A stretch of DNA of 64,000 nucleotides from a virus (lineage: Duplodnaviria; Heunggongvirae; Uroviricota; Caudoviricetes), in IMG/VR virus record IMGVR_UViG_3300042296_001032. One strand, written 5' to 3'. Below the pieces are notes generated by a model that was not told where the DNA came from, searched no databases, and saw only the letters and a program-made list of their open reading frames with translations. Position numbers and translations under genes: made by a program. Position 1 is the first letter of the stretch; each line of letters begins with the position of its first letter. This document shows, one piece after another, positions 4,074 through 58,566 of the stretch.

Positions 4074-4739
4074 ATGAAAAACATTTCAAAAATAAAGTTA
4101 AACTTATTACAAGAAAAACTATACGTAGAGGGTCTATGTAATGAACTATACACTAACATAGCTTTTTACGGTGAAAGAGATTCTGATATAAAATTAATGA
4201 TTGAGTCTTCTAGTGAAGAAAAAGGTACTAATAAAATTTTAAATGATGTTGTAACAGATTTAAAATTGGCACCAAAGTTTATTTTTACTTTTGGTTCTGG
4301 TATTGGAGCTTTTCATGGACCTGTTAGTAGATTGTTACAAGGTTCAGGGTTTAGTATGACTAAAGAAGAAGTTGTTTTATTAATAATAACAGCTATAGCA
4401 ATTTTATTAAATGAACCAGATTCTAAAAAATTAATGGATACTGTTAAAGAAAAAGGTTTATTGCCAGCTTTAAAAGGTGTTAAAGATTTAATATCTAGTG
4501 TTCAAGAGATTATTAATAACATTACTAGAAAAGTAATTAATACCACTTATTCTTTATCAGATGTTTTAGGTTTTACTTTTCTATTGGTACCCACAATGCA
4601 AACTATAAGTAAACTTATTAATGATTATGGGATTACCACAGGAACAATAAGTGAATTGGTGAAGGGGTTATTATTCGCAACAATAACTTACTCGGTTAAA
4701 GGTGTCCTTAAAAAGATTGGTAAAAGGTTTAATGATTAA
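4074..4739 (+). CDS. Hypothetical protein with a hydrophobic central segment
   Basis: 221 aa ORF on the plus strand. Confidence 0.5.
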   Translation: MKNISKIKLNLLQEKLYVEGLCNELYTNIAFYGERDSDIKLMIESSSEEKGTNKILNDVVTDLKLAPKFIFTFGSGIGAFHGPVSRLLQGSGFSMTKEEVVLLIITAIAILLNEPDSKKLMDTVKEKGLLPALKGVKDLISSVQEIINNITRKVINTTYSLSDVLGFTFLLVPTMQTISKLINDYGITTGTISELVKGLLFATITYSVKGVLKKIGKRFND

Positions 4740-4987
4740 GCCTTTTTAATAACCTCACTAACAAAAGACCTTATTTTACCATCAATAAATACTTCGATGA
4801 TTGGAACCTCAGTACCTCTATATTTTTGTATTAGGCTCTGTTCAGTCATTGGTACTTGTTCAAAAGGTAACATATACATATCAGCTATAGTAGCTCTAAC
4901 TGCTGGACTATAAGTTGTAACTAAAACTTCATCACCGATTTTAAAGTTTCCTATATTTGTTTTTTTCATTTTCTGTTGTATTTTCAA
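4736..4987 (-). CDS. Hypothetical protein
   Basis: 83 aa ORF. Confidence 0.4.
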   Translation of the reverse strand: MKIQQKMKKTNIGNFKIGDEVLVTTYSPAVRATIADMYMLPFEQVPMTEQSLIQKYRGTEVPIIEVFIDGKIRSFVSEVIKKA

Positions 4988-5507
4988 AATATAATCTGGA
5001 CATACGTAAATCAGTTACATCATCTATCATAGGGATAAGTTCACCGTCGTAGTACAACTCACAATATAAAGATGCTATAGGTAAATTGTCAACCTTATTT
5101 TTTATATCTTTTTTAATAATAGTTATTTTGTTTAAATCAAAATTATCGAACATAACAAAAATTGAATCAGAAAATATACCTTGTTGGTGTTGGATTGATG
5201 TTACAACAACATCCTTTGAGTTTGGGTAGTCAATGACATCTGTTTTATTATTAACCAAAGCCTCAAAAGCACTAATAGATGTATCTAAAAGAATAAAATC
5301 ATTAACCTCTATTTTTATATCACCATTAATTAAACCAAAATAATGGGTTTCTTTTTTTACGTTTTTGTTTTTTTCTATCTTTTTAATTAAATCTTTAGAC
5401 CATATATCATTAAAAGAACTTTCAAGTTCTTTGTATTTTTCTTTGGGCACAGTTCCCCTGTGTATTTCGCACCCATATCCTTCCATAATAATTCTTACAA
5501 TGTCCAT
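4941..5507 (-). CDS. Hypothetical protein
   Basis: 188 aa ORF. Confidence 0.5.
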   Translation of the reverse strand: MDIVRIIMEGYGCEIHRGTVPKEKYKELESSFNDIWSKDLIKKIEKNKNVKKETHYFGLINGDIKIEVNDFILLDTSISAFEALVNNKTDVIDYPNSKDVVVTSIQHQQGIFSDSIFVMFDNFDLNKITIIKKDIKNKVDNLPIASLYCELYYDGELIPMIDDVTDLRMSRLYFENTTENEKNKYRKL

Positions 5508-5657: not shown

Positions 5658-6584
5658 ATGAAAATTTCAACAGTTATCACAAACATTTTTTTGGCATCAA
5701 TAATTTTATTATCTTTTTCTTGTAAGAAAGAGGTGATTGAAAAGCCTAACAACACAATCGTTACTAACGATACTATCTATAATTTTATGGATATTGATTG
5801 GACTTTGGCATCAGGTAGATTGTATGTCCAAAATCTTGATAACGGTAGTAAAACTCTTTATGACCATTTTGGTTCAGGACAAAATCAAAGTAGCCTAGAC
5901 CCTTTCAACGGTTCTGCTGTACCTTTTGATGACATTGTTAAAGGTGTTACTACTTGGAGATTTACTACTACTGATTTTATTTTGAATAGTTCTAACTTCT
6001 ATAATTTTACACACTCAGGTGATGCTATCTCAGTTATTGGGTTAGAGAATGGTTCTTCCAGACCTTTGATTATAATCAACATCAACAATACTGCAATGAC
6101 TGTTAAACTTAATGAAGATTATTTATCTAGTGGTGGTGTTAACTATAAAATCTTTACTACATTAACTTTTGTTAAACAAGGTAATGTTTGTAACGGGTGT
6201 GAACCAAACGCTATCTCAGGTTATGTTTATCAAGGAGTATTTGGTAATGGTAGTTCTACACAAAATGATATTGTAGGTACTAAATGGGTTGTGACTAAAT
6301 TTTATGATGGTTTTTCTAATAACTACCCTAACGATACTTTGTACTTCGTGAATAACACTCAATACACTATTAATAGTGGTACACCAAAAAGTTATAATGT
6401 AACTACTGGTTTGGGTTCTAACATGTCTACATTGAACCTTTATGGATTCTACACTATCGGTGGTGATTACAGTGGGATGGTACCAAATACGTTTGTTAGT
6501 GATGGTCAAATTAACTCAGTTAGCTTTACCGATTTGTTTGGTATAAACAATAACAAATTAGTTTGGATGATTAGAATTCAATAA
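5658..6584 (+). CDS. Lipoprotein (signal peptide MKISTVITNIFLASIILLSFSC, Bacteroidetes-type lipobox)
   Basis: Internal Met start at 5658 gives a typical signal peptide plus Cys. TATATTTG -7 box about 27 nt upstream. Strong terminator follows. Confidence 0.6.
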   Translation: MKISTVITNIFLASIILLSFSCKKEVIEKPNNTIVTNDTIYNFMDIDWTLASGRLYVQNLDNGSKTLYDHFGSGQNQSSLDPFNGSAVPFDDIVKGVTTWRFTTTDFILNSSNFYNFTHSGDAISVIGLENGSSRPLIIININNTAMTVKLNEDYLSSGGVNYKIFTTLTFVKQGNVCNGCEPNAISGYVYQGVFGNGSSTQNDIVGTKWVVTKFYDGFSNNYPNDTLYFVNNTQYTINSGTPKSYNVTTGLGSNMSTLNLYGFYTIGGDYSGMVPNTFVSDGQINSVSFTDLFGINNNKLVWMIRIQ

Positions 6585-15525: not shown

Positions 15526-15908
15526 TGGTGGAGGTGGAGGGTTTCGAACCCTCGTCCTGCGTTACATTACTAACGTCTTCTACATGCTTATTCCATTTTA
15601 ATCTAAATGGACAAAATATTTGATTTATTATTTACCATTGTAAATCAACAAACAATGGGTATCATTCGATTTTGGGTTCAATGATAATCCACCACAACTA
15701 CGACTTCTGTTGCTAGGTTATATGTCTGCCGACCCCGTAGTAACACCTAATATGATTAGGCAGCTACTGTTGCACCTTCAGTCACAAAGTGACCTACAGT
15801 TGCGTTTGCGAATACGTCGCCGTTTGAAGTTTCAATACGTGTATTAACGTGATAGTATTATTTCACGACATGCTTACCCATTACCAATCGTTAACCAGTC
15901 AAATCCAA
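15526..15908 (-). ncRNA. ssrA: tmRNA (ssrA-like)
   Basis: Minus-strand 5' end GGGGGTGTTTTTGGATTTGACTGG matches the canonical GGGGCUGAUUCUGGAUUCGACGGG. 3' end ...TAAGCATGTAGAAGACG...GGACGAGGGTTCGAAACCCTCCACCTCCACCA matches canonical UAAGCAUGUAG...GGUUCGA..CCACCA. Internal candidate tag frame ends ...EGATVAA then TAA. Confidence 0.7.
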
Positions 15909-15969
15909 AAACACCCCCAATAATTCAAAGAACTCTTACAAATATAAGAATAAATATTAAATAATCAAA

Positions 15970-23351: not shown

Positions 23352-23544
23352 ATTTTATTTTTTTATTATAAATATAATACAGATTTAAATTTTGTCAATA
23401 AAAAACCCCACACTTATTCGAAATCGGTGTGGGGCGTAAAACTCTAGAACCTGAGAACTAGAGGGTCCCGTTGTTTCCAACGGTGGGGTTAAAAGACCTA
23501 TCCTGGGACGCTGTTCTTATGGGTAGCGTGATAGGTACTATTAG

Positions 23545-23617
23545 TAGCGGGAGCTGGACTCGAACCAGCGGCCTTCAGGTTATGAGCCTGCTGAGATACC
23601 AACTTCTCCATCCCACA
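23545..23617 (-). tRNA. tRNA-Met/Ile2 (anticodon CAT)
   Basis: Hand fold: D-arm GAGA/TCTC, anticodon loop CTCATAA, T-arm GCTGG-TTCGAGT-CCAGC. Position 1-72 is a T-T mismatch. Confidence 0.55.
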
Positions 23618-24001
23618 ATATATGGTATATAAGGGAGGATTCGAACCTCCACGAACTTATTCAAAACTAGGTTTCTTTCAGTCCATACATTTTACAAGAG
23701 TCTAAGGATTTAATTCTATCATATTATTAAATCTATCTATATAACTTGTTACAGTTGGTTTTTAAAGAGTACCGTAACCAAACCTCTTGACCAGTCTGAT
23801 TATAGACCACCAAGATTAGCTAAATCTAAGGTCTTTTAGGCTTTTACAGAACTCCCAATCTAACCTTACTCTCTTTTCAAACGTAAGCGTCTACCAATTC
23901 CGCCACTTATATGTATTATTTCAAAGAACTTTATCACATAGCTGTAGATTTACTCTACTATTTACTCACTAGATAATGATAGTGATACTATGTGATTAGT
24001 G

Positions 24002-24110
24002 TACACAAAGAAGGATTCGAACCTCCAAAACCTACTTTTATCGACCCGAAGGTAGATTATTTTCGGTCAGAGTTGTTACACCCCGTGTTTACCAATTTCA
24101 CCACTTGTGT
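24002..24110 (-). tRNA. Atypical, long (109 nt) tRNA-like gene (acceptor ACACAAG/TTTGTGT, normal D- and T-arms, 36 nt extra internal hairpin)
   Basis: Perfect 7 bp acceptor and canonical D-arm (GTGAAATTGGTAAACAC) and T-arm (GGAGGTTCGAATCCTTC). No standard anticodon arm closes. The extra piece could be an intron, or the gene may be a pseudogene. Confidence 0.35.
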
Positions 24111-24368
24111 ATGTTTTTTATTTGTTTAACAAAGATAATAACTTTTTTTTAATCTGTCAATTTTTTTTTTAATTATTTTAAGACCATGTATTTTACCCCA
24201 TCAACAATCTTAACCATATATTTCCCTTGGTCCTTTGTTTTACCTTGGGAACGTTTTGTGGACTTTGCTGTTTTTGTGTTCTTCTCTGTTTCACCATACT
24301 TGTTGGCAATAACCTGTTTCATCGAAAATCTTTCCATAATTTTTATTTTTTACAAATATAACAATTTT

Positions 24369-28279: not shown

Positions 28280-28360
28280 TAGTCAGGACAGGATTTGAAC
28301 CTACGAGAGTCTTTTCGCCCCACGGGTCTCATTTAGGCGTCACCATTTCGCCACCTGACT
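28280..28360 (-). tRNA. Atypical tRNA-like gene (acceptor AGTCAGG/CCTGACT, D-arm GGCGAAATGGTGACGCC, T-arm GTAGGTTCAAATCCTGT); anticodon arm not resolved
   Basis: Perfect acceptor, D and T arms, but the 31 nt between the D and T arms do not form a canonical anticodon arm. Confidence 0.3.
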
Positions 28361-28365
28361 ATTTT

Positions 28366-28614
28366 TTATTTGATAATTAAACTAAATGGTGTTTTAATAT
28401 GTGTCCCGTCACCATTAACCTCAACTATACCTACTGAAACACCTTCCAATTCATCTGTATAATACATACTTGGTGTACAATAATATTTCCCATTAGACAC
28501 CTGTTCCATTAGTTCTTTCATTTTAAGGAACGACTCAACTAATTCCACAGGGATCTTACTGTCGTAACTATCACCATCATAATTCACCATTTGGTATGTT
28601 TCTTTATTTTCCAT
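28366..28614 (-). CDS. Small hypothetical protein embedded in the tRNA array
   Basis: 82 aa ORF between two tRNA-like genes. Confidence 0.4.
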   Translation of the reverse strand: MENKETYQMVNYDGDSYDSKIPVELVESFLKMKELMEQVSNGKYYCTPSMYYTDELEGVSVGIVEVNGDGTHIKTPFSLIIK

Positions 28615-28631
28615 AATTTTTTATTTTTTTG

Positions 28632-28737
28632 TAGTCAGGACAGGACTTGAACCTGTATGTGTAACTTTCTTGGCCCTTCCCCAATGGCACACTATCCACT
28701 CGTTAATTTAGCGTCTAACCAATTCCGCCACCTGACT
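28632..28737 (-). tRNA. Atypical tRNA-like gene with about 30 nt extra sequence (acceptor AGTCAGG/CCTGACT, D-arm GCGGAATTGGTTAGACGC, T-arm CAGGTTCAAGTCCTG)
   Basis: Shares its acceptor with the 28280-28360 locus. 106 nt is too long for a standard tRNA. Possibly intron-containing. Confidence 0.3.
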
Positions 28738-36536: not shown

Positions 36537-36606
36537 TACCGAGTATGGGAATTGAACCCACTTGACCATCCTTATGAGAGATAGTTCTTTACCACTAAGC
36601 CTCGGT
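36537..36606 (-). tRNA. tRNA-like gene, CAT anticodon (third CAT tRNA in this array), short D-arm
   Basis: Acceptor ACCGAGG/ACTCGGT (6 of 7 pairs). Anticodon arm TATCT-CTCATAA-GGATG. T-arm GTGGG-TTCAATT-CCCAT. Confidence 0.4.
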
Positions 36607-38498: not shown

Positions 38499-39902
38499 TT
38501 AATTTTTATTTAATTTAACCGTTATTTTTGTACCAGTGTTAATTTTTTCACACATCATACTAAAACCATGTTCTTCTAAAATTGTTTTGGTTATACCTAA
38601 ACCTAAACCAACTTCGGAATTACTCTTTTTATTTAAATATTCACCTGTTGTTCTTTCGAACTCTTTTTGTGAAAATCCAACACCATTATCTTCAATAATT
38701 AAATCATTATTATCCATGTAAATTTTAATTTCTTTATTTTCACTACTATTATATTTTAACCCATTTTTAATTAAATTATCAATAGCGTTCCAAAAAAGAG
38801 TTTCATTTACATTTAGTGTAACTAATTCACTAATTTCTACCTGATTTTTATATGATGTATTTGTTAAGTATTTTAATAAAGATTCTTTTATATCAACCAT
38901 ATTTCTATCTAAAACTACAGTATTTTTCACAAGGTTTGTAAACTCATAAACACTTTTATATACTTTTTGTGTGTGTGCCAAACCATCTTTTATCATTTTA
39001 ATTGAGGGTGTAATTTTTAAGTTATTCATTTCCTCAATTGAAATTCTTTTTTCTAATGACGATAACCCTCTTGGTATATAGGTGTTAATACCTGAATGCA
39101 TGTCGTGTCTAATTATTCTAGCCGCATATTCAAGGTAAGTGTTTTTCTTGTTAATGTCTTTTAATTGGTTTTCGATTTCTATGTCTTGGACTTTAATTGT
39201 TTTTCTTTGTAATAAAACAATAATACCTAAAACCAAAACAGAAAGAACAATTGTGGACCACCATAAATATTTTTTTAAGGTTTTTTTATCGGTAACTAAA
39301 TCATCATTTTTAACACTAAGATTAATGATATTTTTTTCTTTACCTAATATTTGTATAGTACTTGTTTTAGAACTGATAACTTCTTGACTAGCTTTATTTT
39401 TTAATAATTCTTTTTTTTCTTTTAATAGTTTTTGGAGTTTTGACTCTATCTCATCAGCAATTTTTTTTATATCTTTTTTAGATAAATTATCGTATGATTT
39501 TGGTAGGTCATCTAAAAATTTTTGGTCGGCTTTAATACTAGATAATTCTGAGTCACTTAACTCTTGTACGGGTTCTTCTTTAGGTGTGTCAAAAACTTTT
39601 TCAGGTTTTAAATCAACAACATCAATATAGGTACTAACCTTATCTAAATACCAATCTGACTCATCATACATACCTTTATTATAAAAAGAGATACCAATTT
39701 CTTGACATAAGCTTGATTGGTATTTAGTTAATTTTTTATTTGGTTCGTAATTTAATTTTTTAATTAAACTAGTTATACGACTATCACTAGGACATGTAGG
39801 TTCAATCTCTGTTTTTTTGGGGTTATTATCAGTCTGTGAATTTACATTTAAAGAAGTAAAAAAACCCAAAAACATTATTGTTATTAAAATATTTTTTATC
39901 AT
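38499..39902 (-). CDS. Sensor histidine kinase (signal peptide, extracytoplasmic domain, TM, divergent HisKA, HATPase_c)
   Basis: N-box NAIDNLIKNGLKYN, G1 DNGVGF, G2 GLGLGI. H-box is divergent (RIIRHDMHSGINTY instead of SHELRTPL). Confidence 0.7.
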   Translation of the reverse strand: MIKNILITIMFLGFFTSLNVNSQTDNNPKKTEIEPTCPSDSRITSLIKKLNYEPNKKLTKYQSSLCQEIGISFYNKGMYDESDWYLDKVSTYIDVVDLKPEKVFDTPKEEPVQELSDSELSSIKADQKFLDDLPKSYDNLSKKDIKKIADEIESKLQKLLKEKKELLKNKASQEVISSKTSTIQILGKEKNIINLSVKNDDLVTDKKTLKKYLWWSTIVLSVLVLGIIVLLQRKTIKVQDIEIENQLKDINKKNTYLEYAARIIRHDMHSGINTYIPRGLSSLEKRISIEEMNNLKITPSIKMIKDGLAHTQKVYKSVYEFTNLVKNTVVLDRNMVDIKESLLKYLTNTSYKNQVEISELVTLNVNETLFWNAIDNLIKNGLKYNSSENKEIKIYMDNNDLIIEDNGVGFSQKEFERTTGEYLNKKSNSEVGLGLGITKTILEEHGFSMMCEKINTGTKITVKLNKN

Positions 39903-40513
39903 AATTTTGGGGTTAATTTATATGGGAATAATACTATTCTTGGTTTATATTTTGGGGATATATTTAATTCCCAACCAATCTCAGGACTTTCTTCTTTAAG
40001 TAGATTTATTTGTTTCCAATAATATATATTAGTAACATCACCTCTTGTAATTAAACTATAATTACCACTTCCTCTATGCGATACTAACATATACAAACTT
40101 AAATCAATAACTTTAACTGTTGAGTCTTGCCAAGAATAATATAGGTACCCATTATCTATCGACGACGATAAAATCCAATTCTCTAACGTATCTATTTTAG
40201 AAATTAAACTATCGTAATAATTGTTTTGGACGGTTAACAAACTATCCAATTGGTTAATAACACTATCTTTTATTTTAATATCGTTATTTAATAACGTGTT
40301 AGTATCATTAACTAATTTTATTTCTGTTTTATATTTTTGTATTCTAATTTTTTGATTCTCAATTAGTGAATTAATATCATCAGATTGTTTTTTTGTAAGA
40401 ATAACCACAGAATCACCTTTTAATTGTGTCTGGATAGGGTAGGTTGGTTGTGAATACACTATACTTACCATACTTATGAAAAATATGGTTAATAAATTTT
40501 TTAGTTTTATCAT
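39899..40513 (-). CDS. Secreted protein (signal peptide MIKLKNLLTIFFISMVSIVYSQ) inside the two-component operon
   Basis: ATGA overlaps on both sides. Confidence 0.5.
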   Translation of the reverse strand: MIKLKNLLTIFFISMVSIVYSQPTYPIQTQLKGDSVVILTKKQSDDINSLIENQKIRIQKYKTEIKLVNDTNTLLNNDIKIKDSVINQLDSLLTVQNNYYDSLISKIDTLENWILSSSIDNGYLYYSWQDSTVKVIDLSLYMLVSHRGSGNYSLITRGDVTNIYYWKQINLLKEESPEIGWELNISPKYKPRIVLFPYKLTPKL

Positions 40514-42435
40514 TTTAGTTCAATTTTCATTTTTGTCCCTATGTCATTTTTCTCACACGAAATATTAAATTTATGTTCTTCTAAAATAGCTACACATATA
40601 TTAAGCCCTAGACCAGTTCCAGATTCTTTTTGGCCTTCTTTTCTGGTATATGGTTGGGATAAATGAATAAAATCTTTTTGTGTAATCCCTCTACCGTTGT
40701 CTTGTATAATTAGATTACCATCTTCCATATATATTTTAACAAATTTTGTATTACTATCATTATACTTTAACCCATTACGAATTAAATTATCGACTGCGGT
40801 ACAGAATAATGGTTCATTAACTTCTATCGTTGGTAACTCATCAATAATAACTTGACTACTATATGCTGTCGCTGATAAATAATCCTCAAGTATATCTTTT
40901 AAATTACATTCCGTTTTATTTAAAACAACATCTTTCTTTACAAGATTTGTAAATTCGTAAACCCCTTTATATACTTTTTGGGAATGTTTTAAACCCTCTT
41001 TAATCATTTTAATTGGGGCCTCAATTTTTAAAGTTTTAATATCTTCGGGGGTTAATCTTCTTTCTAAAGAACTTAATCCTCTTGGCATATAAGTATTAAT
41101 ACCTGAATGCATATCGTGTCTTAATATTTTAGCCGCATGTTCTAGGTAAGTGTTTTTCTTTTCAATTTCTTTCTTTTGTTCGTAGGAATTGGTGATATCT
41201 GTCGCGATTTTCATAACACGATAAACCTTACCATCTAAACCGATAACTGGATTGTATGTTGCTTGTAGATACACTAAAGAACCGTCTTTTTTAATTCTAG
41301 TAATTTCACCGGTAAATAACACCCCTTCATTTAATTTTTCCCAAAAAAGAGAGTATTCTTCACTTTTTGAGTATTCCTCATCTATAAAAATTCTATGGTG
41401 TTTTCCAACTACTTCATCCTGTAAAGAATATCCCATAGTTTCTAAAAACAAATTATTAGCAAAAATGATGTTTCCTTCTAAATCAAACTCAATAACTGCG
41501 TTAGATTTATTTATCGCGTTCATTCTATTGCGAATTTCAACTTCCTTTTTTTTAAGTTCTGTAACATCTTGTCTTATTGAAGCAAATCCATCCAATTTAC
41601 CATCGGTATCAAAAATTGCTCTAATAAAAGTATCAACGTAATATAATTCTCCTGATTTTCCTTTATTGGTAACAACGTCATTCCATACATCACCTTTCAT
41701 TACCGTTTCATACATTTTACCCCAATATCCATCAGGTTGTAATCCCGAATTAACAATAACATGGTCTTTACCAACTACCTCATCCAAAGACCACCCAGAA
41801 ACATCCTCAAATTTTTTATTAACATATGTAATTTTACCTCTTTTATCAGCAGTAGATATAATTGTCGATACGTCAATAAATTTTTCTGTTTCTTCTATTT
41901 TTTTATTTAAATTGTTTGTTTCTTTTATTGAATAAGCAAAAGTGTATAAAGAAGATAATAATTGAGTAAAATCAACCTCAAAAGAATCCCATTCACGTAA
42001 TGTAAAACTTTCAATACATATAACACCAATAGTTTCCCCAAAATAAATGATAGGTACATCTAACATAGATTTAATACCCAGTGGTTTTAAATAACCATCA
42101 GTAAAACAAGATGTTGCTGGATGTTTTTCAGCATCATTAGCTATTATTATTGGGTTCTTTATTAATTCTTCGAAATACGGTCCAAAATCCTTTTCAAAGA
42201 TTTCTAAACCATCATACCACATATTTTCAGATTTAACATATAATTGTTGGCAAACAATAGATGTTTTATTTTTGTTGTATAACCATATAGAACATCTATC
42301 AACATTAATTGAGTCTACAACTTCTTTAGTTAGAATTTTAGAACCTTCTACTATATCCCCTTTATAAAAAAGAGGGTTATGTGTTTGTGAAATTAAAGTT
42401 TTATTTAATTTATTAATGTAAAAATTTTTATCCAT
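40510..42435 (-). CDS. Cytoplasmic sensor histidine kinase with GAF and tandem PAS domains, same divergent H-box (KILRHDMHSGINTY)
   Basis: N-box NLIRNGLKYN, G1 DNGRGI, G2 GTGLGLNI. PAS-like KRGKITYVNKKFEDVSGWSLDEVVGK repeats. Confidence 0.7.
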   Translation of the reverse strand: MDKNFYINKLNKTLISQTHNPLFYKGDIVEGSKILTKEVVDSINVDRCSIWLYNKNKTSIVCQQLYVKSENMWYDGLEIFEKDFGPYFEELIKNPIIIANDAEKHPATSCFTDGYLKPLGIKSMLDVPIIYFGETIGVICIESFTLREWDSFEVDFTQLLSSLYTFAYSIKETNNLNKKIEETEKFIDVSTIISTADKRGKITYVNKKFEDVSGWSLDEVVGKDHVIVNSGLQPDGYWGKMYETVMKGDVWNDVVTNKGKSGELYYVDTFIRAIFDTDGKLDGFASIRQDVTELKKKEVEIRNRMNAINKSNAVIEFDLEGNIIFANNLFLETMGYSLQDEVVGKHHRIFIDEEYSKSEEYSLFWEKLNEGVLFTGEITRIKKDGSLVYLQATYNPVIGLDGKVYRVMKIATDITNSYEQKKEIEKKNTYLEHAAKILRHDMHSGINTYMPRGLSSLERRLTPEDIKTLKIEAPIKMIKEGLKHSQKVYKGVYEFTNLVKKDVVLNKTECNLKDILEDYLSATAYSSQVIIDELPTIEVNEPLFCTAVDNLIRNGLKYNDSNTKFVKIYMEDGNLIIQDNGRGITQKDFIHLSQPYTRKEGQKESGTGLGLNICVAILEEHKFNISCEKNDIGTKMKIELK

Positions 42436-51605: not shown

Positions 51606-52400
51606 CTAAGATTTCTTTAACTTTTTATGTGCATTAACATTGTTTTGATTATATTCAACAACACTTAAATTCATTTCAGGTTTACTCGTTAATAAAACAT
51701 AATCACCTTTACCTTTTTGTTCTTTCCATAACAGGTCAACTTCTTTTGGGTATATTTTGTTCCATACTACCGTAGATTCTCTTCTTAAAAGTTCTTTTGA
51801 TTTTTTATTCAGGGGGTATATATATCTAAATTGTTTTCCTCTAATTCTACGAATACCTTTTATTTTTATAAAATCAGGGGTCATCCAAAATAATTTTTCT
51901 TTACCCGAAAATTCAGCATTTTCTTTCAATAAAGCTTTTGAACTTCTTGGGTGTATTTTCTCCCCTAAAGGTGATATGTAGATATCGGTCCAAATAAAAT
52001 TACCATAATAAAAATTAGACCCTTGGTACACATACCCAACTTTACCCACAATTCCATCTGCCCATGTATAAAGAAATTTCTTTTCAGGTAAATTAGTTTT
52101 CATCCATCTAACTACTTGAGCTAACATCTGTGACTCTGAATTTCTAGGCATAGAATCATCCATACACATCTTACCAATTTCGTAATAATCCTCTGATTTT
52201 AAGTTCGGGAATAACTTTTTAATTGTTTGTAAGGGTTGTGTCCCCCACCCCAATGTAACAACACCAACTAACTCATTGTTTAAAAAACAACCTAACCAAT
52301 GTTTGGTTAATTTAGGCATTACTTTTGAATAGTGTCTTTCTTGTACAAATTCTATAGCAAGAGTTTTATCTATCTCTTTAATTTCAAAAAAATATTTCAT
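51606..52400 (-). CDS. Mom-like (phage Mu DNA-modification, GNAT-fold-like) family protein, paralog 1
   Basis: FVQERHYSKVMPK...GVVTLGWGTQP resembles the Mom xHHYLxRxP ... GVxTF..PP signature. Tandem with a paralog. Confidence 0.4.
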   Translation of the reverse strand: MKYFFEIKEIDKTLAIEFVQERHYSKVMPKLTKHWLGCFLNNELVGVVTLGWGTQPLQTIKKLFPNLKSEDYYEIGKMCMDDSMPRNSESQMLAQVVRWMKTNLPEKKFLYTWADGIVGKVGYVYQGSNFYYGNFIWTDIYISPLGEKIHPRSSKALLKENAEFSGKEKLFWMTPDFIKIKGIRRIRGKQFRYIYPLNKKSKELLRRESTVVWNKIYPKEVDLLWKEQKGKGDYVLLTSKPEMNLSVVEYNQNNVNAHKKLKKS

Positions 52401-52401
52401 T

Positions 52402-53133
52402 TTAAAAAGCTAATTCAGTTATTTCATCACATTTGGGGCAAGAATACCATTTTTTAAATCTATTGTCGTAAATTTGTTTTTTACCGGCACAACAATCATA
52501 TTCATTTGTATCACCTTTTTGTGGTCTCATTTCTTCAATATATAAGCACTTTAAAGATTTATCAATAATATAAGCATATCTATGTTTCCTTGTTCTAGGA
52601 ATCCAAACACCTTGGACTTCTTTTGTTGAACCTCTAGGGTTAACCTTACCATCCCATCTAAAAAAATCTGATTTCTTATCTGTTAAGCCGTAATAGGTGA
52701 AGTTACAGACCTGATATATACTACCGCTATGTCTACTATCATCCGCTAATGTTATAACTGCCTTAACACCTTCTTTTTTTAGTAATCTAATACTACCACC
52801 TAATAGGTATGAAGTTAGGTTTGTACCATTTAATTCAGGTAAAACACAAAGTCTACTAAGTTCTAAAACCGTTTGGTTATCATTGGATAAACCAAACCAA
52901 CCCTTTAAAGCTACATTACCTTGTGGATTAGAGAAAGTAGCAACACCAATGATATCTTCAGTCTCCCTATCAATTACAGCATAAGAAAATTTAGCAAAAA
53001 ATTTAGCTTCACCCAAGTAGTGATAAGTTTTAACAAAATCGTAAGCCTCTTTTTTGGTAACTTCTTTTAAATAGAAAATATCTTTAGCCTTAAGCTCTCG
53101 GTTGATAAACTTCTGAACTGTTTGTTTGTTCAT
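52402..53133 (-). CDS. Mom-like DNA-modification family protein, paralog 2, with a C-terminal zinc ribbon
   Basis: FVKTYHYLGEAKF...GVATFSNPQG...ELSRLCVLPE (compare Mom ELSRLVLHPEA). C-terminus CCAGKK...CPKCDE. Confidence 0.45.
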   Translation of the reverse strand: MNKQTVQKFINRELKAKDIFYLKEVTKKEAYDFVKTYHYLGEAKFFAKFSYAVIDRETEDIIGVATFSNPQGNVALKGWFGLSNDNQTVLELSRLCVLPELNGTNLTSYLLGGSIRLLKKEGVKAVITLADDSRHSGSIYQVCNFTYYGLTDKKSDFFRWDGKVNPRGSTKEVQGVWIPRTRKHRYAYIIDKSLKCLYIEEMRPQKGDTNEYDCCAGKKQIYDNRFKKWYSCPKCDEITELAF

Positions 53134-53898: not shown

Positions 53899-55341
53899 TT
53901 AAAGAATCCAAACCTTTACAGGTTCATATCTTTCTGAATGTACGGTTTCATTCATAATATTAACAGGTGTTAAACTGTTAGGATTATTCAGAACCGATTT
54001 CAAGATTGATGGACTGAAACCACTAATTAAAGCAGTTCCAACCTCATCAAATCTTGCTGGGAAATTACCCCCGTTGGAATGTAGGTTCCAGAAAATAATT
54101 CCAGGTTTTACATAACCAGCGTTAGTGTACATTTCATCAATCATCGACATAGCCGAGGGATTCCAATCAGATTCATTTCCCCAACCACTACTAGTAGCGG
54201 AATCAAACTCCATATCGGATAGGATAAGAATCTTTGTTGGCATCTCTTCCTGTGGAACACCAAATTTAACTGCTTGATTCAAGATAGTCTTGAACGCTGC
54301 TTCTAAATTAGTTGACATACCCCATTTAGCTCTAGCTAATTGATTGTAACGGTCACTAAGTGGACCCATCAATTTTTGAATTTCGGGATTTGAAGAAAAT
54401 GTCATAAACATATCTTTAAATGCTCCCTCATTTCTTTCAGAGATGTACATACCCAAAGAAATAGCCACCTCCATACATGTAAGGTTTGGATTACCTCCTA
54501 CCGAACAATCCATTGAACCTGAAACGTCAACCAAAGGTAGGACAAGTTCTGTTGAACCTTCCATATAATTTGGTAGGGCTTTCCATTGTTCATTAGCCAA
54601 ATCTTTATTACCGAATCTAAGATTCTTGGTAACATCGTAAGGATACAAAGCTCCGGCGTTAACTTTAGTTTCACCTTTTTGAAGGGCTTCAATAAATTGA
54701 CCAAATCTTTCTTGGTCGTTTCTGCCAAAAGCTTTTGTATACCTTGACATAGCCAAAGATGGTGTCTTTGAATACTCAATCTCTGCCCAACTTTTCGAAC
54801 ACATTTTTTGTTCTACCGTGTTTGACAAAGACACAAGTAATTTTCTAAGGGATTTTGGGTCCAACTTAAGTGCTTTACGTACTTTATTAAATACCAAACC
54901 TTTACGGGGCATCCATTTAGCACATAAACCATTACCACTTTTTAAACCTTCTACAAGAAGTGTGATGGCGTCATTTTCCAATTCAGTTCCGAAAAGGATA
55001 TGAACGTCATCCCATCTCCCGTATTCAGGAATTAAGTTAAGATTAACTTTAACTACTTTTGAGTAGTTATCAACTAGGTAAGATAAAATATCTCTAAAGA
55101 TTTTTCTCTCACCAGCACCACCTCTAACATCTCTTGCCCAAAAAAGGATTCTTAATGCTGTAGTTGGTTCTTCACTGAAAGCCTTTGAGAAAAGTTTTAC
55201 AACACTCTCAGAACTTTTACCTCTCATTGCTCCAATGGAGAAGAAAAGGTTAACACACTCATTAAGAGAAGATGAATTAGTTTCCATCCCGTTCTTAGTG
55301 GTTGTGTTTTCAGTTTGTAATGCTTCAGTTAATCTTGACAT
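53899..55341 (-). CDS. Ro60/TROVE-like protein with a C-terminal vWA (MIDAS) domain
   Basis: LVDVSGSMD...GMSTNLEAAF...ILILSDMEFDS parallels the Ro60 vWA (VDVSASM...GGTDCS...IVFTDNETF). N-terminal region shows TROVE-like blocks (AKWMPRKGLVFNKVRKALKLDP compare Ro60 [21 protein letters not shown]). Confidence 0.55.
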   Translation of the reverse strand: MSRLTEALQTENTTTKNGMETNSSSLNECVNLFFSIGAMRGKSSESVVKLFSKAFSEEPTTALRILFWARDVRGGAGERKIFRDILSYLVDNYSKVVKVNLNLIPEYGRWDDVHILFGTELENDAITLLVEGLKSGNGLCAKWMPRKGLVFNKVRKALKLDPKSLRKLLVSLSNTVEQKMCSKSWAEIEYSKTPSLAMSRYTKAFGRNDQERFGQFIEALQKGETKVNAGALYPYDVTKNLRFGNKDLANEQWKALPNYMEGSTELVLPLVDVSGSMDCSVGGNPNLTCMEVAISLGMYISERNEGAFKDMFMTFSSNPEIQKLMGPLSDRYNQLARAKWGMSTNLEAAFKTILNQAVKFGVPQEEMPTKILILSDMEFDSATSSGWGNESDWNPSAMSMIDEMYTNAGYVKPGIIFWNLHSNGGNFPARFDEVGTALISGFSPSILKSVLNNPNSLTPVNIMNETVHSERYEPVKVWIL

Positions 55342-57633: not shown

Positions 57634-58566
57634 TTAACTAAAGTTGGGCATATTTTTTAACTCCCTTATCTTATATTCTTCAATATCAGATAATTCTTTT
57701 GGTATTATTGGGTTTAATGTAACGTATAAATCACCGGTTATACCAGTAGAACCATCCACAAAACCCTTACCACGTAATCTAAACGTTTTATTTGTCTCAG
57801 ATAACTTAGGTATCTTTACTTTAACACTACCATCTAAAGTACTAAACTCACTTTCAATACCTAATAAAATGTCTAGGATTGGAATGTCTAATTTTCTTTT
57901 AAGATTTAAACCTTCTAAAGTATAAACATCATGTGGTTTTAACTTGGTAATAAAATACAAATCCCCCCTTTGGGCATTCTTAACCCAATCACCTAAACCA
58001 GGGTAGGTAAAGAAAGAATCATCAACTGTTCCACTAGGTACTTTAACCTCAACACTTCTAATCGTTTTAACAGCACCATTACCATTACAGTGATAACAAA
58101 CAGATTTAAATAATTTACCGTTACCACCACAATTATTACACATAAATAAAAATGGGCCTTGTTGTATATGACCATTCCCACCACATTGGTTACACTGTTG
58201 TGGTTCAAAACCTCCTTCCCCATGACATTTGTCACAAGCTTCGGTAGAATGGAAATTAATAATCTTATCACAACCATAATAAGATTCCTCAAGGGTTAAT
58301 TCTATAACTAATTTTAAAGGTCTAGCTTTTTGTGGACCTCCTTGGAAAGGGTTAAAACCACCAAAAGGATTTCCTTGGTTTTTTGGTTTTTGTTTCCCTG
58401 TTAATATTTCGTAAGCTTCAACAACCTTTTTAAAGTTTTCTTCAGCCTCTTTGTTGTTTGGGTTTAAATCTGGGTGATATTTTTTAGACATTTTTCTATA
58501 TGCCTTTTTTATATCTTCTTCTTTAGCTCCTTCATTTAAACCTAAAATATCATAATATTCTTTCAT
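57634..58566 (-). CDS. dnaJ: DnaJ-type co-chaperone (J domain, four CxxCxGxG zinc-finger repeats, C-terminal domain)
   Basis: YYDILGL...KKAYRKMSKKYHPDLNP. CDKCHGEG, CNQCGGNG, CNNCGGNG, CYHCNGNG. Confidence 0.85.
   Translation of the reverse strand: MKEYYDILGLNEGAKEEDIKKAYRKMSKKYHPDLNPNNKEAEENFKKVVEAYEILTGKQKPKNQGNPFGGFNPFQGGPQKARPLKLVIELTLEESYYGCDKIINFHSTEACDKCHGEGGFEPQQCNQCGGNGHIQQGPFLFMCNNCGGNGKLFKSVCYHCNGNGAVKTIRSVEVKVPSGTVDDSFFTYPGLGDWVKNAQRGDLYFITKLKPHDVYTLEGLNLKRKLDIPILDILLGIESEFSTLDGSVKVKIPKLSETNKTFRLRGKGFVDGSTGITGDLYVTLNPIIPKELSDIEEYKIRELKNMPNFS

Follow-up and report, generated by a model that had tools for sequence, protein, structure and literature searches.

Two oversized leucine-type tRNA-like genes in a huge phage of Bacteroidota and a possible wider class of tRNA-shaped carrier RNAs

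Two oversized tRNA-like genes of leucine type, here called locus 1 (287 nt) and locus 2 (109 nt), were analyzed in a 64,000-nt stretch of the IMG/VR virus record IMGVR_UViG_3300042296_001032 (Caudoviricetes), referred to below as the window. They lie in one minus-strand unit that runs from a promoter-like site through locus 2, locus 1 and a tRNA-Met gene to a structured element and a terminator-like hairpin (Table 1). Both have a 7-bp acceptor stem, a D arm and a T arm with the T-loop consensus, together with A73 and a leucine-type D arm (GCG-GAAUUGGUAGA-CGC or GUG-AAAUUGGUAAA-CAC). A canonical anticodon arm was found in neither gene: its two strands stand 190 nt apart in locus 1, and in locus 2 the stem starts at position 26 and closes a 6-nt loop.

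Table 1. Coordinates of the transcription unit, of the parts of both loci and of related genes in the window.
Feature	Positions	Strand	Remarks
Promoter-like site (TTGACA, 17-nt spacer, TATCTT)	24160-24132	minus	predicted; 10/12 matches
Bacteroidota-type TAnnTTTG box, TATCTTTG	24137-24130	minus	overlaps the TTGACA-17-TATCTT site
Locus 2	24110-24002	minus	leucine-type tRNA-like gene, 109 nt; no encoded CCA
Locus 2, acceptor stem	24110-24104 / 24009-24003	minus	A73 at 24002
Locus 2, D stem	24101-24099 / 24087-24085	minus	
Locus 2, hairpin in anticodon-arm position	24084-24069	minus	5-bp stem from tRNA position 26; 6-nt loop GUAACA
Locus 2, giant variable arm	24068-24029	minus	40 nt; outer helix GACC/GGUU; inner hairpin capped by UUCG
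Locus 2, T arm	24026-24010	minus	
Locus 1	23912-23626	minus	leucine-type tRNA-like gene, 287 nt; one gene, read directly from the sequence
Locus 1, 5′ acceptor strand ATATAAG	23912-23906	minus	followed by U8, G9
Locus 1, D stem GCG/CGC	23903-23901 / 23889-23887	minus	3 bp; D arm GCG-GAATTGGTAGA-CGC, then U26
Locus 1, anticodon stem TACGT/ATGTA	23885-23881 / 23690-23686	minus	5 bp; bridges the gap
Locus 1, insert	23880-23691	minus	190 nt, between the two anticodon-stem strands
Locus 1, variable arm GGACU...AGUUC	23684-23653	minus	32 nt
Locus 1, T arm GGAGG-TTCGAAT-CCTCC	23650-23634	minus	
Locus 1, 3′ acceptor strand CTTATAT	23633-23627	minus	A73 at 23626
CCA encoded right after A73 of locus 1	23625-23623	minus	sequence reading
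tRNA-Met(CAT), canonical	23617-23544	minus	56.3 bits; 8 nt downstream of locus 1
Structured element closing the unit	23540-23398	minus	nested hairpin ACCTATC / ACGCT ... AGCGT / GATAGGT and two more hairpins
Terminator-like G+C-rich hairpin, then T run	ends near 23398	minus	
Further leucine-type member	28632-28737	minus	106 nt; Rfam tRNA 34.8 or 34.5 bits (pair with 28280-28360)
Further leucine-type member	28280-28360	minus	81 nt; Rfam tRNA 34.8 or 34.5 bits (pair with 28632-28737)
tmRNA	15526-15918	minus	99.3 bits; tag ANATVGHFVTEGATVAA

The first-pass annotation, made from the sequence of the window, had matched an acceptor and D-arm half of locus 1 to a distant T-arm and acceptor half. This match proved real, with positions that were right within 1–5 nt, and the two halves are also joined by an anticodon stem that had escaped notice; its five pairs occupy exactly tRNA positions 27–31 and 39–43. 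The D arm is identical to that of the tRNA-Leu(UAG) gene of the window, so that its 19-nt string occurs twice there, compared with no occurrence in 100 shuffles, and the first 30 nt of locus 1 match annotated tRNA-Leu genes of unrelated phages. The Rfam tRNA model (RF00005, gathering threshold 29 bits) scored locus 1 at 21.1 bits, a value that came from a spurious fold of its 3′ part, and locus 2 at 35.1 bits, above the threshold only because the model skips 47 nt in place of a 17-nt anticodon arm.

Homologues of both loci were found in a syntenic IMG/VR contig (L002), whose adjoining protein is 81% identical to that of the window, and locus 1 was also present in a metagenome contig (L013). 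More distant copies of locus 1 occur in L071/L078, L060 and L111, and those of locus 2 in L071, L118 and L123; L071 keeps the gene order of the window, with locus 2 followed by locus 1 and tRNA-Met. A blastn search of the region against 50,697 phage records returned only tRNA-Met and tRNA-Leu 5′ pieces, and the relative LR745206 has the adjoining ORF with no tRNA genes at that place. A pattern search with the insert blocks found L002/L009 in IMG/VR and L013 in metagenomes, the remaining matches being due to chance, and contigs reached through the adjoining 92-aa protein were too short to help.

Folded singly at minimum energy, the sequences did not stand out (z = −2.05 and −0.41 for loci 1 and 2, respectively), and covariation was therefore used instead. 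In the alignment of six locus 1 homologues, from which the inserts had been taken out, 97.9% of cells were paired and 13 of 24 pairs had changed on both sides. These comprised all seven acceptor pairs, three of the five anticodon-stem pairs, and further pairs belonging to the D, variable and T helices, with the two halves pairing across 141–196 nt of intervening sequence. None of 500 shuffles matched the observed pairing values, and partner columns that had been slid out of register were 30–61% paired. The variable-arm helix was 100% paired among the homologues, with both one- and two-sided changes; L071, L060 and L111 have a 12-nt GAAC-GAAA-GUUY hairpin instead of the 32-nt arm. For the five homologues of locus 2, 99.2% of cells were paired and nine pairs had changed on both sides.

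These alignments bear on whether the loci could be tRNA pseudogenes or fragments in decay, as had been offered earlier as one of two options; recombination and the movement of homing endonucleases through the array might have left such remains. Traffic of this kind is suggested by homing endonuclease genes between the corresponding genes of L002, by a truncated tRNA-Met 5′ fragment in the same contig, and by HNH endonuclease ORFs near the loci in the window. Nevertheless, 98–99% of pairs were kept by compensatory changes while the adjoining protein has diverged to 81% identity, gene order is conserved, the predicted promoter and terminator are intact, and CCA is encoded. Since every tRNA-type helix contains compensatory changes, and both genes are conserved and share one unit with tRNA-Met, the loci are not pseudogenes, and we reject decay as very improbable.

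Base pairing between the two ends of the locus 1 insert continues the anticodon stem in register and lengthens it; outward from the stem, the register in the window is U-A, U-A, G·A, A-U, A·G, AAGAG/CUCUU and UAAGG/CCUUA. The anticodon arm of locus 1 is, in this form, an irregular rod of ~20 bp bearing a 190-nt multi-helix domain. Its interior holds several helices, among them the hairpin GAUUUAAU...AUUAAAUC, and an invariant 21-nt block, TAAGGTTAGATTGGGAGTTCT. Between the window and L002 the insert was 79.8% identical, compared with 81.6% for the adjoining coding gene and 91–97% for the tRNA-type parts, and the L013 insert is without one peripheral segment of ~45 nt. RNAalifold predicted a helix set common to all three close homologues, a prediction for the internal helices that rests on three close sequences rather than on covariation proof. 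Judged by its block conservation, invariant blocks and conserved helices, the insert behaves like a functional domain.

The unusual length given earlier for locus 2 was confirmed, and the excess was traced to a giant variable arm that lies next to the hairpin in anticodon-arm position. Across the homologues this hairpin has a covarying stem of 5–7 bp and a loop of always 6 nt, whose sequence is free (GUAACA, CUUUAG, UUCAAC) and offers no U33 context. The outer helix of the variable arm covaries as well (GACC/GGUU, AACC/GGUU, GACC/GGUC, GAAC/GUUU, GGAC/GUCU), the inner hairpin changes from ACC/GGU in the window to CCC/GGG in L002, and the internal loop keeps CGAAAA and AAAAGUAG. As the hairpin has no insert and the extra length is a covarying variable arm, locus 2, on the evidence of these alignments, needs no intron to account for its length. 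The suggestion that both genes are intron-bearing tRNAs thus holds in a descriptive sense for locus 1, whose anticodon arm contains extra RNA; no intron model matched this RNA, and locus 2 has no insert at all.

Intron models were searched with Rfam over 23400–24300 at E ≤ 10 with relaxed filters, and no group I (RF00028), group II or self-cleaving ribozyme match was obtained. Scans of the loci at gathering thresholds and at E ≤ 10 returned tRNA matches only, with RAGATH-7, S774 and similar models far below their thresholds. A hand search for P1 and its internal guide sequence (IGS), for P7, for the terminal omega-G and for a bulge-helix-bulge found nothing that held across the homologues. Group II introns are six-domain ribozymes with a domain V and a length of ~400 nt or more; the insert has 190 nt and no Rfam match to them.

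A self-splicing group I (or group II) intron would nevertheless have a well-known precedent in the tRNA-Leu(UAA) genes of cyanobacteria and plastids, where an insert of ~200 nt likewise interrupts the anticodon loop. The tRNA-Leu host gene, with UAA in L013, and the position of the insert recall this classic case, and crossing pairings for a pseudoknot can be drawn by eye. The resemblance does not extend to the details, as the catalytic core modeled in Rfam is missing, no P7 or G-binding-site-like element was recognized in the insert, and the 5′ junction sequences are unrelated among the relatives. The sole candidate omega-G (CUUG|UAAAA in the window and L002) is an A in L013. Moreover, the inserts measure 164–196 nt in the three closest homologues and 141 nt in L071, below the smallest group I introns known to us, which have ~200 nt. 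We consider self-splicing highly improbable.

The decoding end was assessed with ARAGORN and from the bases that follow the anticodon stem of locus 1. Without the intron option, ARAGORN found neither locus and 0 of 48 oversized genes. With the intron search, a check that had been proposed for both loci, it closed a different, poorly paired anticodon stem each time. Locus 1 was called Pro(TGG) or Phe(GAA), varying with the amount of sequence supplied, and locus 2 Val(AAC) or Cys(ACA); five locus 1 homologues came out as Phe, Phe, Leu(TAG), Asn(ATT) and Lys(TTT), and near-identical copies of a 146-nt class of oversized genes described below as Phe, Val or Tyr. The seven bases after the locus 1 anticodon stem were UUGAAAA (window), UUGAAGA, UUUUAAU (L013), CGUAGGU (L071), GAAAAAC (L060) and AAUCAAC (L111) in the six homologues, and in L111 they form the next 7 bp of the helix. 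No homologue set keeps a 7-nt loop together with U33 and one anticodon.

Our preferred reading, held with moderate confidence and drawn from comparative sequence evidence, is that both loci encode expressed, structured, unspliced and non-decoding tRNA mimics built on the chassis of a bacterial type-II (leucine) tRNA. RNase P, RNase Z, the CCA-adding enzyme and EF-Tu would recognize the retained top half, which consists of the acceptor stem, A73 and the D-T elbow. Because enzymes of this kind read that half, the primary transcript of the operon could be cut into stable tRNA-shaped RNAs, which might also be leucylated. In E. coli, leucyl-tRNA synthetase (LeuRS) identity resides in A73 and in the type-II D arm with its 3-bp stem and G18G19 context, without need of the anticodon; wherever the enzyme has been studied, it reads the top half and ignores the anticodon. 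Of these features, A73 and the type-II D arm are present in both loci and may allow charging. With the decoding end replaced, the RNAs would display a lineage-specific RNA domain as their working part, a manner of display akin to that of tmRNA, YrlA Y RNAs and engineered 'tRNA scaffolds'. As to its role, one may speculate that the domain binds a Ro60/TROVE-like protein encoded at 53899–55341, or that it diverts host nucleases or other enzymes acting on type-II tRNAs.

Several observations weigh against this reading of the loci as non-decoding mimics. Only five to six homologues were available per locus. At the 5′ side of the insert, UUGAAAA of the window and L002 is a perfect tRNA-Phe anticodon loop, and positions 34–36 read UAA in L013 and UAG in L071, both of them leucine anticodons. 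These loop-like remnants suggest a tRNA-Leu(UAA) ancestor with an insertion beside the anticodon, and they would also fit splicing. Furthermore, tRNAs of Lak megaphages that are otherwise normal have insertions at 37/38 that occur as presence/absence alleles (PMC6784885), and such alleles imply that a splicing route may exist in this phage group. Locus 1 could then be a true intron-containing tRNA from which the 190 nt are removed by a new bacterial or phage pathway, for example by an endonuclease that cuts at the internal loop beside the anticodon stem and an RNA ligase that follows, leaving a decoding type-II product of ~97 nt. The covarying 5-bp stem lies exactly where such a product would need it, joining the exons at 35/36 or 36/37 would close a loop of 7 nt in the window, L002 and L013, the Lak data include a 'Leu TAA' gene noted for its 'huge intron' (PMC6784885, Table S6), and RNA ligases are common in huge phages (PMC7824862).

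On the other side, the anticodon implied by splicing varies (GAA, UAA, UAG, AAA, UCA), U33 is absent in L071, L060 and L111, and the product in the window would combine a leucine-type body with a Phe anticodon although a normal tRNA-Phe is present. By inspection, the insert junction is a nearly continuous symmetric helix, and neither the window nor L013 allows a bulge-helix-bulge, with a 4-bp central helix and two 3-nt bulges, to be drawn. A scan of the 30 larger ORFs of the 64-kb window detected no domain of an RNA ligase or a splicing endonuclease. Conservation of the insert runs in blocks, the pattern expected of a functional domain, and splicing leaves locus 2 and the many members of the class with closed hairpins (see below) unexplained. 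We consider it unlikely, though with a real share of the probability, that locus 1 is spliced.

A further alternative retains the unspliced RNAs and makes them working, unorthodox decoders, with locus 2, for instance, reading codons through its 6-nt loop or acting as a frameshift or leucine-inserting stop suppressor. The indifference of LeuRS to the anticodon would permit this, stop codons are recoded in related phages (PMC6784885), and the CUUUAG loop of L118 contains UUA, the complement of the UAA stop. However, the loop sequence varies while its size and the stem are kept, the hairpin starts at position 26 with a geometry unlike that of a tRNA, and no stop-codon-rich ORFs were noticed, the scanned ORFs of the window giving full-length Pfam matches under code 11. 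Decoding by these RNAs therefore appears improbable.

Similar genes were searched for with a 21-mer, GGCGGAATTGGWAGACGCTTA, which covers the D arm and three further bases. It occurs in 94 stretches in IMG/VR, among which 44 distinct oversized genes of 92–293 nt were found, none of them canonical or of tRNA length. In these 44 genes the 7 bases before the 21-mer are exactly complementary to the 7 bases after a downstream T arm, and A73 nearly always comes next. Their middle parts are mutually unrelated and include domains of 100–250 nt; one type has a perfect 8-bp hairpin whose 4-nt loop is able to kiss the next hairpin, some have H-type pseudoknots that covary between subfamilies, and in some a pseudoknot or a 4-nt loop stands where the anticodon loop belongs. 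Many are solitary, with no tRNA within several kb, and no protein neighbor was shared across 51 distinct loci. Bacteroides phages carry two abundant versions, one of 146 nt and one of 164 nt, and the 164-nt gene lies without annotation at 57835–57998 of the cultured phage BI-TP1 (PQ571265).

In 185,579 bacterial and archaeal genomes (one per species), the 21-mer gave 18 hits. Eight were ordinary tRNA-Leu genes of 82–84 nt, which means that the 21-mer itself does not force the oddity, and ten were oversized, mostly in assemblies of Bacteroides, Phocaeicola and Parabacteroides; we think that these ten copies are in putative prophages. No insert-free version sharing the 5′ half was found among the 94 IMG/VR and 18 genome hits, in which close relatives are thinly sampled.

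The window contains a further pair of such genes (28280–28360 and 28632–28737), both with the acceptor stem AGTCAGG/CCTGACT and A73, and with no recognizable anticodon arm in either. An 82-aa ORF (28366–28614) lies between them, and the pair stands just upstream of a tRNA-Met. The same acceptor stem is common to many of the IMG/VR genes; tandem pairs that carry it occur in L026, L030 and L055, and L063 has a 106-nt homologue of the longer gene. In addition, a second, internal T-arm-like hairpin (e.g., CACG-TTCGATT-CGTG) was observed in genes of L087 (112 nt), L039 (102 nt) and L139 (111 nt), and recalls the 'tRNA within an intron' of Lak phages.

An ordinary host gene may have contributed to part of this class. 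A normal 82-nt tRNA-Leu(CAG) in Phocaeicola dorei and Bacteroidaceae assemblies (L147 5102–5183; L141) shares its acceptor stem, GGATAAG/CTTATCC, and its D arm with 146-nt phage genes (L021, L031 and others), in which both acceptor strands change in step (GGGTAAG, GGAGAAG, GGATAAG). Host tRNA-Leu genes may, as this hints, have been mimicked or have recombined with the phage genes, possibly at integration sites. That the 146- and 164-nt versions are mere remnants of integration sites was rejected, since this would explain neither the complete compensated fold nor the genes of the present lytic-type huge phage; the attachment-site idea may bear on the origin of the Bacteroides-phage versions. 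It also counts against a single family of mimics that the genes found with the 21-mer may be several independent offshoots of tRNA-Leu, the common thing being a design.

It is possible, and we propose it tentatively, that these genes represent an unnamed RNA class spread across many phage lineages, in which the top half of a leucine tRNA serves as a module for processing, stability and possibly aminoacylation, and the anticodon arm has been exchanged for lineage-specific effector domains. Both loci and the pair at 28280–28737 would be members acting in trans. Within this tentative proposal, the effector domains would take the form of rods, pseudoknots, kissing hairpins and domains of 100–250 nt, and conceivable trans roles include those of Y-RNA-like partners of Ro60 and of decoys or sponges for enzymes and immune nucleases that recognize type-II tRNAs.

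A candidate protein partner is encoded by the window itself. The minus-strand ORF at 53899–55341 (480 aa) carries the Pfam domains DUF2828 and DUF7788, and a PDB sequence search and NCBIfam gave nothing for it. Its AlphaFold model (pLDDT 75.6) was compared with known structures using Foldseek; Ro60/TROVE proteins, with the Ro60 of Thermus phage phiLo among them, gave the best matches, the top one in the PDB being a phage Ro60 (9l5y, E = 3e-8), and human Ro60 matched over its full length (E ~3e-5). The protein is very widespread, with ~8000 relatives in the database and 711 phage records, including Felix O1-like, Listeria, Vibrio and Campylobacter phages, Lak-C1 and mycobacteriophages, whose homologues are annotated as 'Ro-like RNA binding protein'. 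Ro60 proteins bind Y RNAs. The YrlA Y RNAs of bacteria and phages have tRNA-like D and T arms with a helix in the position of the anticodon arm (PMC4201824), and a phage Ro60 binds two phage-encoded Y-like RNAs (PMC12135203). As the oversized genes are the only T-arm-bearing RNAs of the window besides its tRNAs, they are candidate partners of the Ro60-like protein.

Several points speak against this partnership. The oversized loci lie 30 kb from the protein gene, no YrlA-like RNA was found beside that gene, and compared with YrlA the loci have a permuted topology. Locus 1, in which CGAA does not occur, lacks the YrlA motif GNCGAAN0-1G, and locus 2 offers no more than ACCGAAAA. In the class as a whole, 29 of 55 sequences contain CGAA compared with 17 expected, a modest enrichment among sequences that are not independent. 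The link is weak, and Ro60 binding by the oversized RNAs is put forward as a hypothesis from a predicted structure.

Among described RNAs, YrlA Y RNAs and tmRNA come closest to the loci in design, and the Lak 'enigmatic introns' in context, and the defining features of each were not found here. Like YrlA, the loci have real tRNA-like D and T arms, an acceptor-like stem and a long helix in the place of the anticodon arm, and YrlA occurs in phages that encode Ro60-like proteins, as the window does. The YrlA of M. smegmatis is cut by RNase P and receives CCA, and Yrn1 of D. radiodurans has a 6-nt 'anticodon' loop (PMC4201824). YrlA differs in that its acceptor-like stem is loop-closed and both RNA termini lie in the Ro-binding helix, whereas the loci have an open acceptor stem with A73 (plus CCA), match neither the YrlA motif nor the Rfam YrlA model, and do not adjoin the Ro60-like gene. 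With tmRNA they share a tRNA-like acceptor and T domain, which in tmRNA is aminoacylated, and, where the anticodon arm would be, a long irregular helix that leads into a large structured region. Position 3–70 is A-U in both loci, in contrast to the G3-U70 alanine identity of tmRNA, and its lack of a true D stem, its tag frame and its pseudoknots were not seen here. Accordingly, ARAGORN and Rfam call only 15526–15918 as tmRNA, and neither locus. In the related contigs L026 and L058, tmRNAs are also present, with tags differing from that of the window. Ponchon and Dardel are said to have grafted structured RNAs on the anticodon stem of a 'tRNA scaffold', which the tRNA enzymes of the cell reportedly process and stabilize. 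This is the same architecture as that of locus 1 in a laboratory device, and we know of no natural phage counterpart that has been described.

The assumption that introns are unusual in phage tRNAs is outdated, since a report of 2019 described 'enigmatic introns' in the tRNAs of Lak megaphages (PMC6784885). The inserts described there have 79–141 nt, lie at 37/38 of otherwise normal Tyr, Phe, Thr and Gly anticodon loops, have a short hairpin at the start and then an internal, tRNA-like minihelix that carries a T loop, and occur in alleles with and without the insert (PMC6784885). As in the window, these are oversized tRNA genes in arrays of huge Bacteroidota phages, with extra RNA in the anticodon arm and no Rfam match. 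Unlike them, the locus 1 insert has no common sequence with the Lak inserts and no internal T loop (a T-loop motif was found neither inside it nor in the window outside tRNA and tRNA-like genes), and its homologues keep no anticodon loop. Insert-free alleles are seen between near-identical Lak genomes; none was seen for the loci of the window. Also listed in that study is a 106-nt gene of leucine type from a 596-kb phage, with an insert of 23 nt, and the low-scoring 'Leu TAA' gene with the 'huge' intron, on a pig scaffold, is mentioned in passing (PMC6784885); the latter may be of the same kind as locus 1. A first glimpse of the phenomenon was hence given in 2019 by a supplement whose notes mention leucine-type 'possible tRNAs with introns' and do not analyze them (PMC6784885). 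Al-Shayeb et al. (2020) do not mention tRNA introns, and we found no description of this RNA class later than 2019 and nothing relevant on LoVEphage tRNA or DUF2828 in the literature searched.

Phage tRNA genes are usually viewed as helpers for codon usage, or as spares against anticodon nucleases. The present results suggest that genes which pipelines drop, or label as 'pseudo' or 'intron-containing', are partly a separate kind of RNA, namely tRNA-shaped carriers. The class is easily found, with one 21-mer leading to 44 distinct genes, including that of a cultured Bacteroides phage, BI-TP1, and its breadth would surprise a specialist. With such a phage in culture, the question of 2019, whether the 'enigmatic introns' are spliced or not, can now be tested. 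If the RNAs are charged with leucine and yet do not decode, the role of an aminoacylated non-decoder in the infected cell becomes a new question; if they are spliced, bacteria or phages own a tRNA-splicing route that is neither of group I nor of archaeal type.

The surroundings of the unit identify the window as part of a huge phage of a Bacteroidota host without a close sequenced relative. DNA similarity to known phages was weak only, to Lak and other phages of >600 kb, and the encoded proteins include a type IX secretion CHU_C domain protein and Mom-family proteins. The box that overlaps the promoter-like site belongs to the TAnnTTTG motif of Bacteroidota-style promoters, and similar strings also precede the homologous genes in L002 and L013. 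In the structured element that closes the unit, the outer stem changes from CCTATC/GATAGG to CTTATT/AATAAG in L013 while the loop CCATAAGAAC stays constant. No Rfam match was found for 23398–23540, and the element may represent either a small RNA or a part of the operon concerned with 3′ processing or stability.

In L002, two GIY-YIG-type homing endonuclease ORFs (4696–5353 and ~5740–6225) lie between the tRNA-like genes, and the truncated tRNA-Met 5′ fragment (5672–5697) stands beside an intact but different tRNA-Met. The array of this contig looks like the outcome of endonuclease-driven replacement.

In total, the window contains 24 tRNA genes and one tmRNA, all on the minus strand, with canonical tRNA-Leu(UAA), tRNA-Leu(UAG), tRNA-Phe(GAA) and tRNA-Tyr(GUA) among them, and tRNA-His was not found in it. 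A 70-nt tRNA at 36537–36606 (minus strand), with the CAU anticodon loop CUCAUAA, was missed by ARAGORN and scored 30.3 bits with Rfam; it may be the third CAU tRNA, the lysidine-type tRNA-Ile. Three further groups of minus-strand genes appear to be unusual cargo for a phage: a GAF-PAS-PAS histidine-kinase-like protein with a second HATPase protein (38499–42435), two adjoining Mom-family proteins (51606–53133), and a full-length DnaJ (57634–58566).

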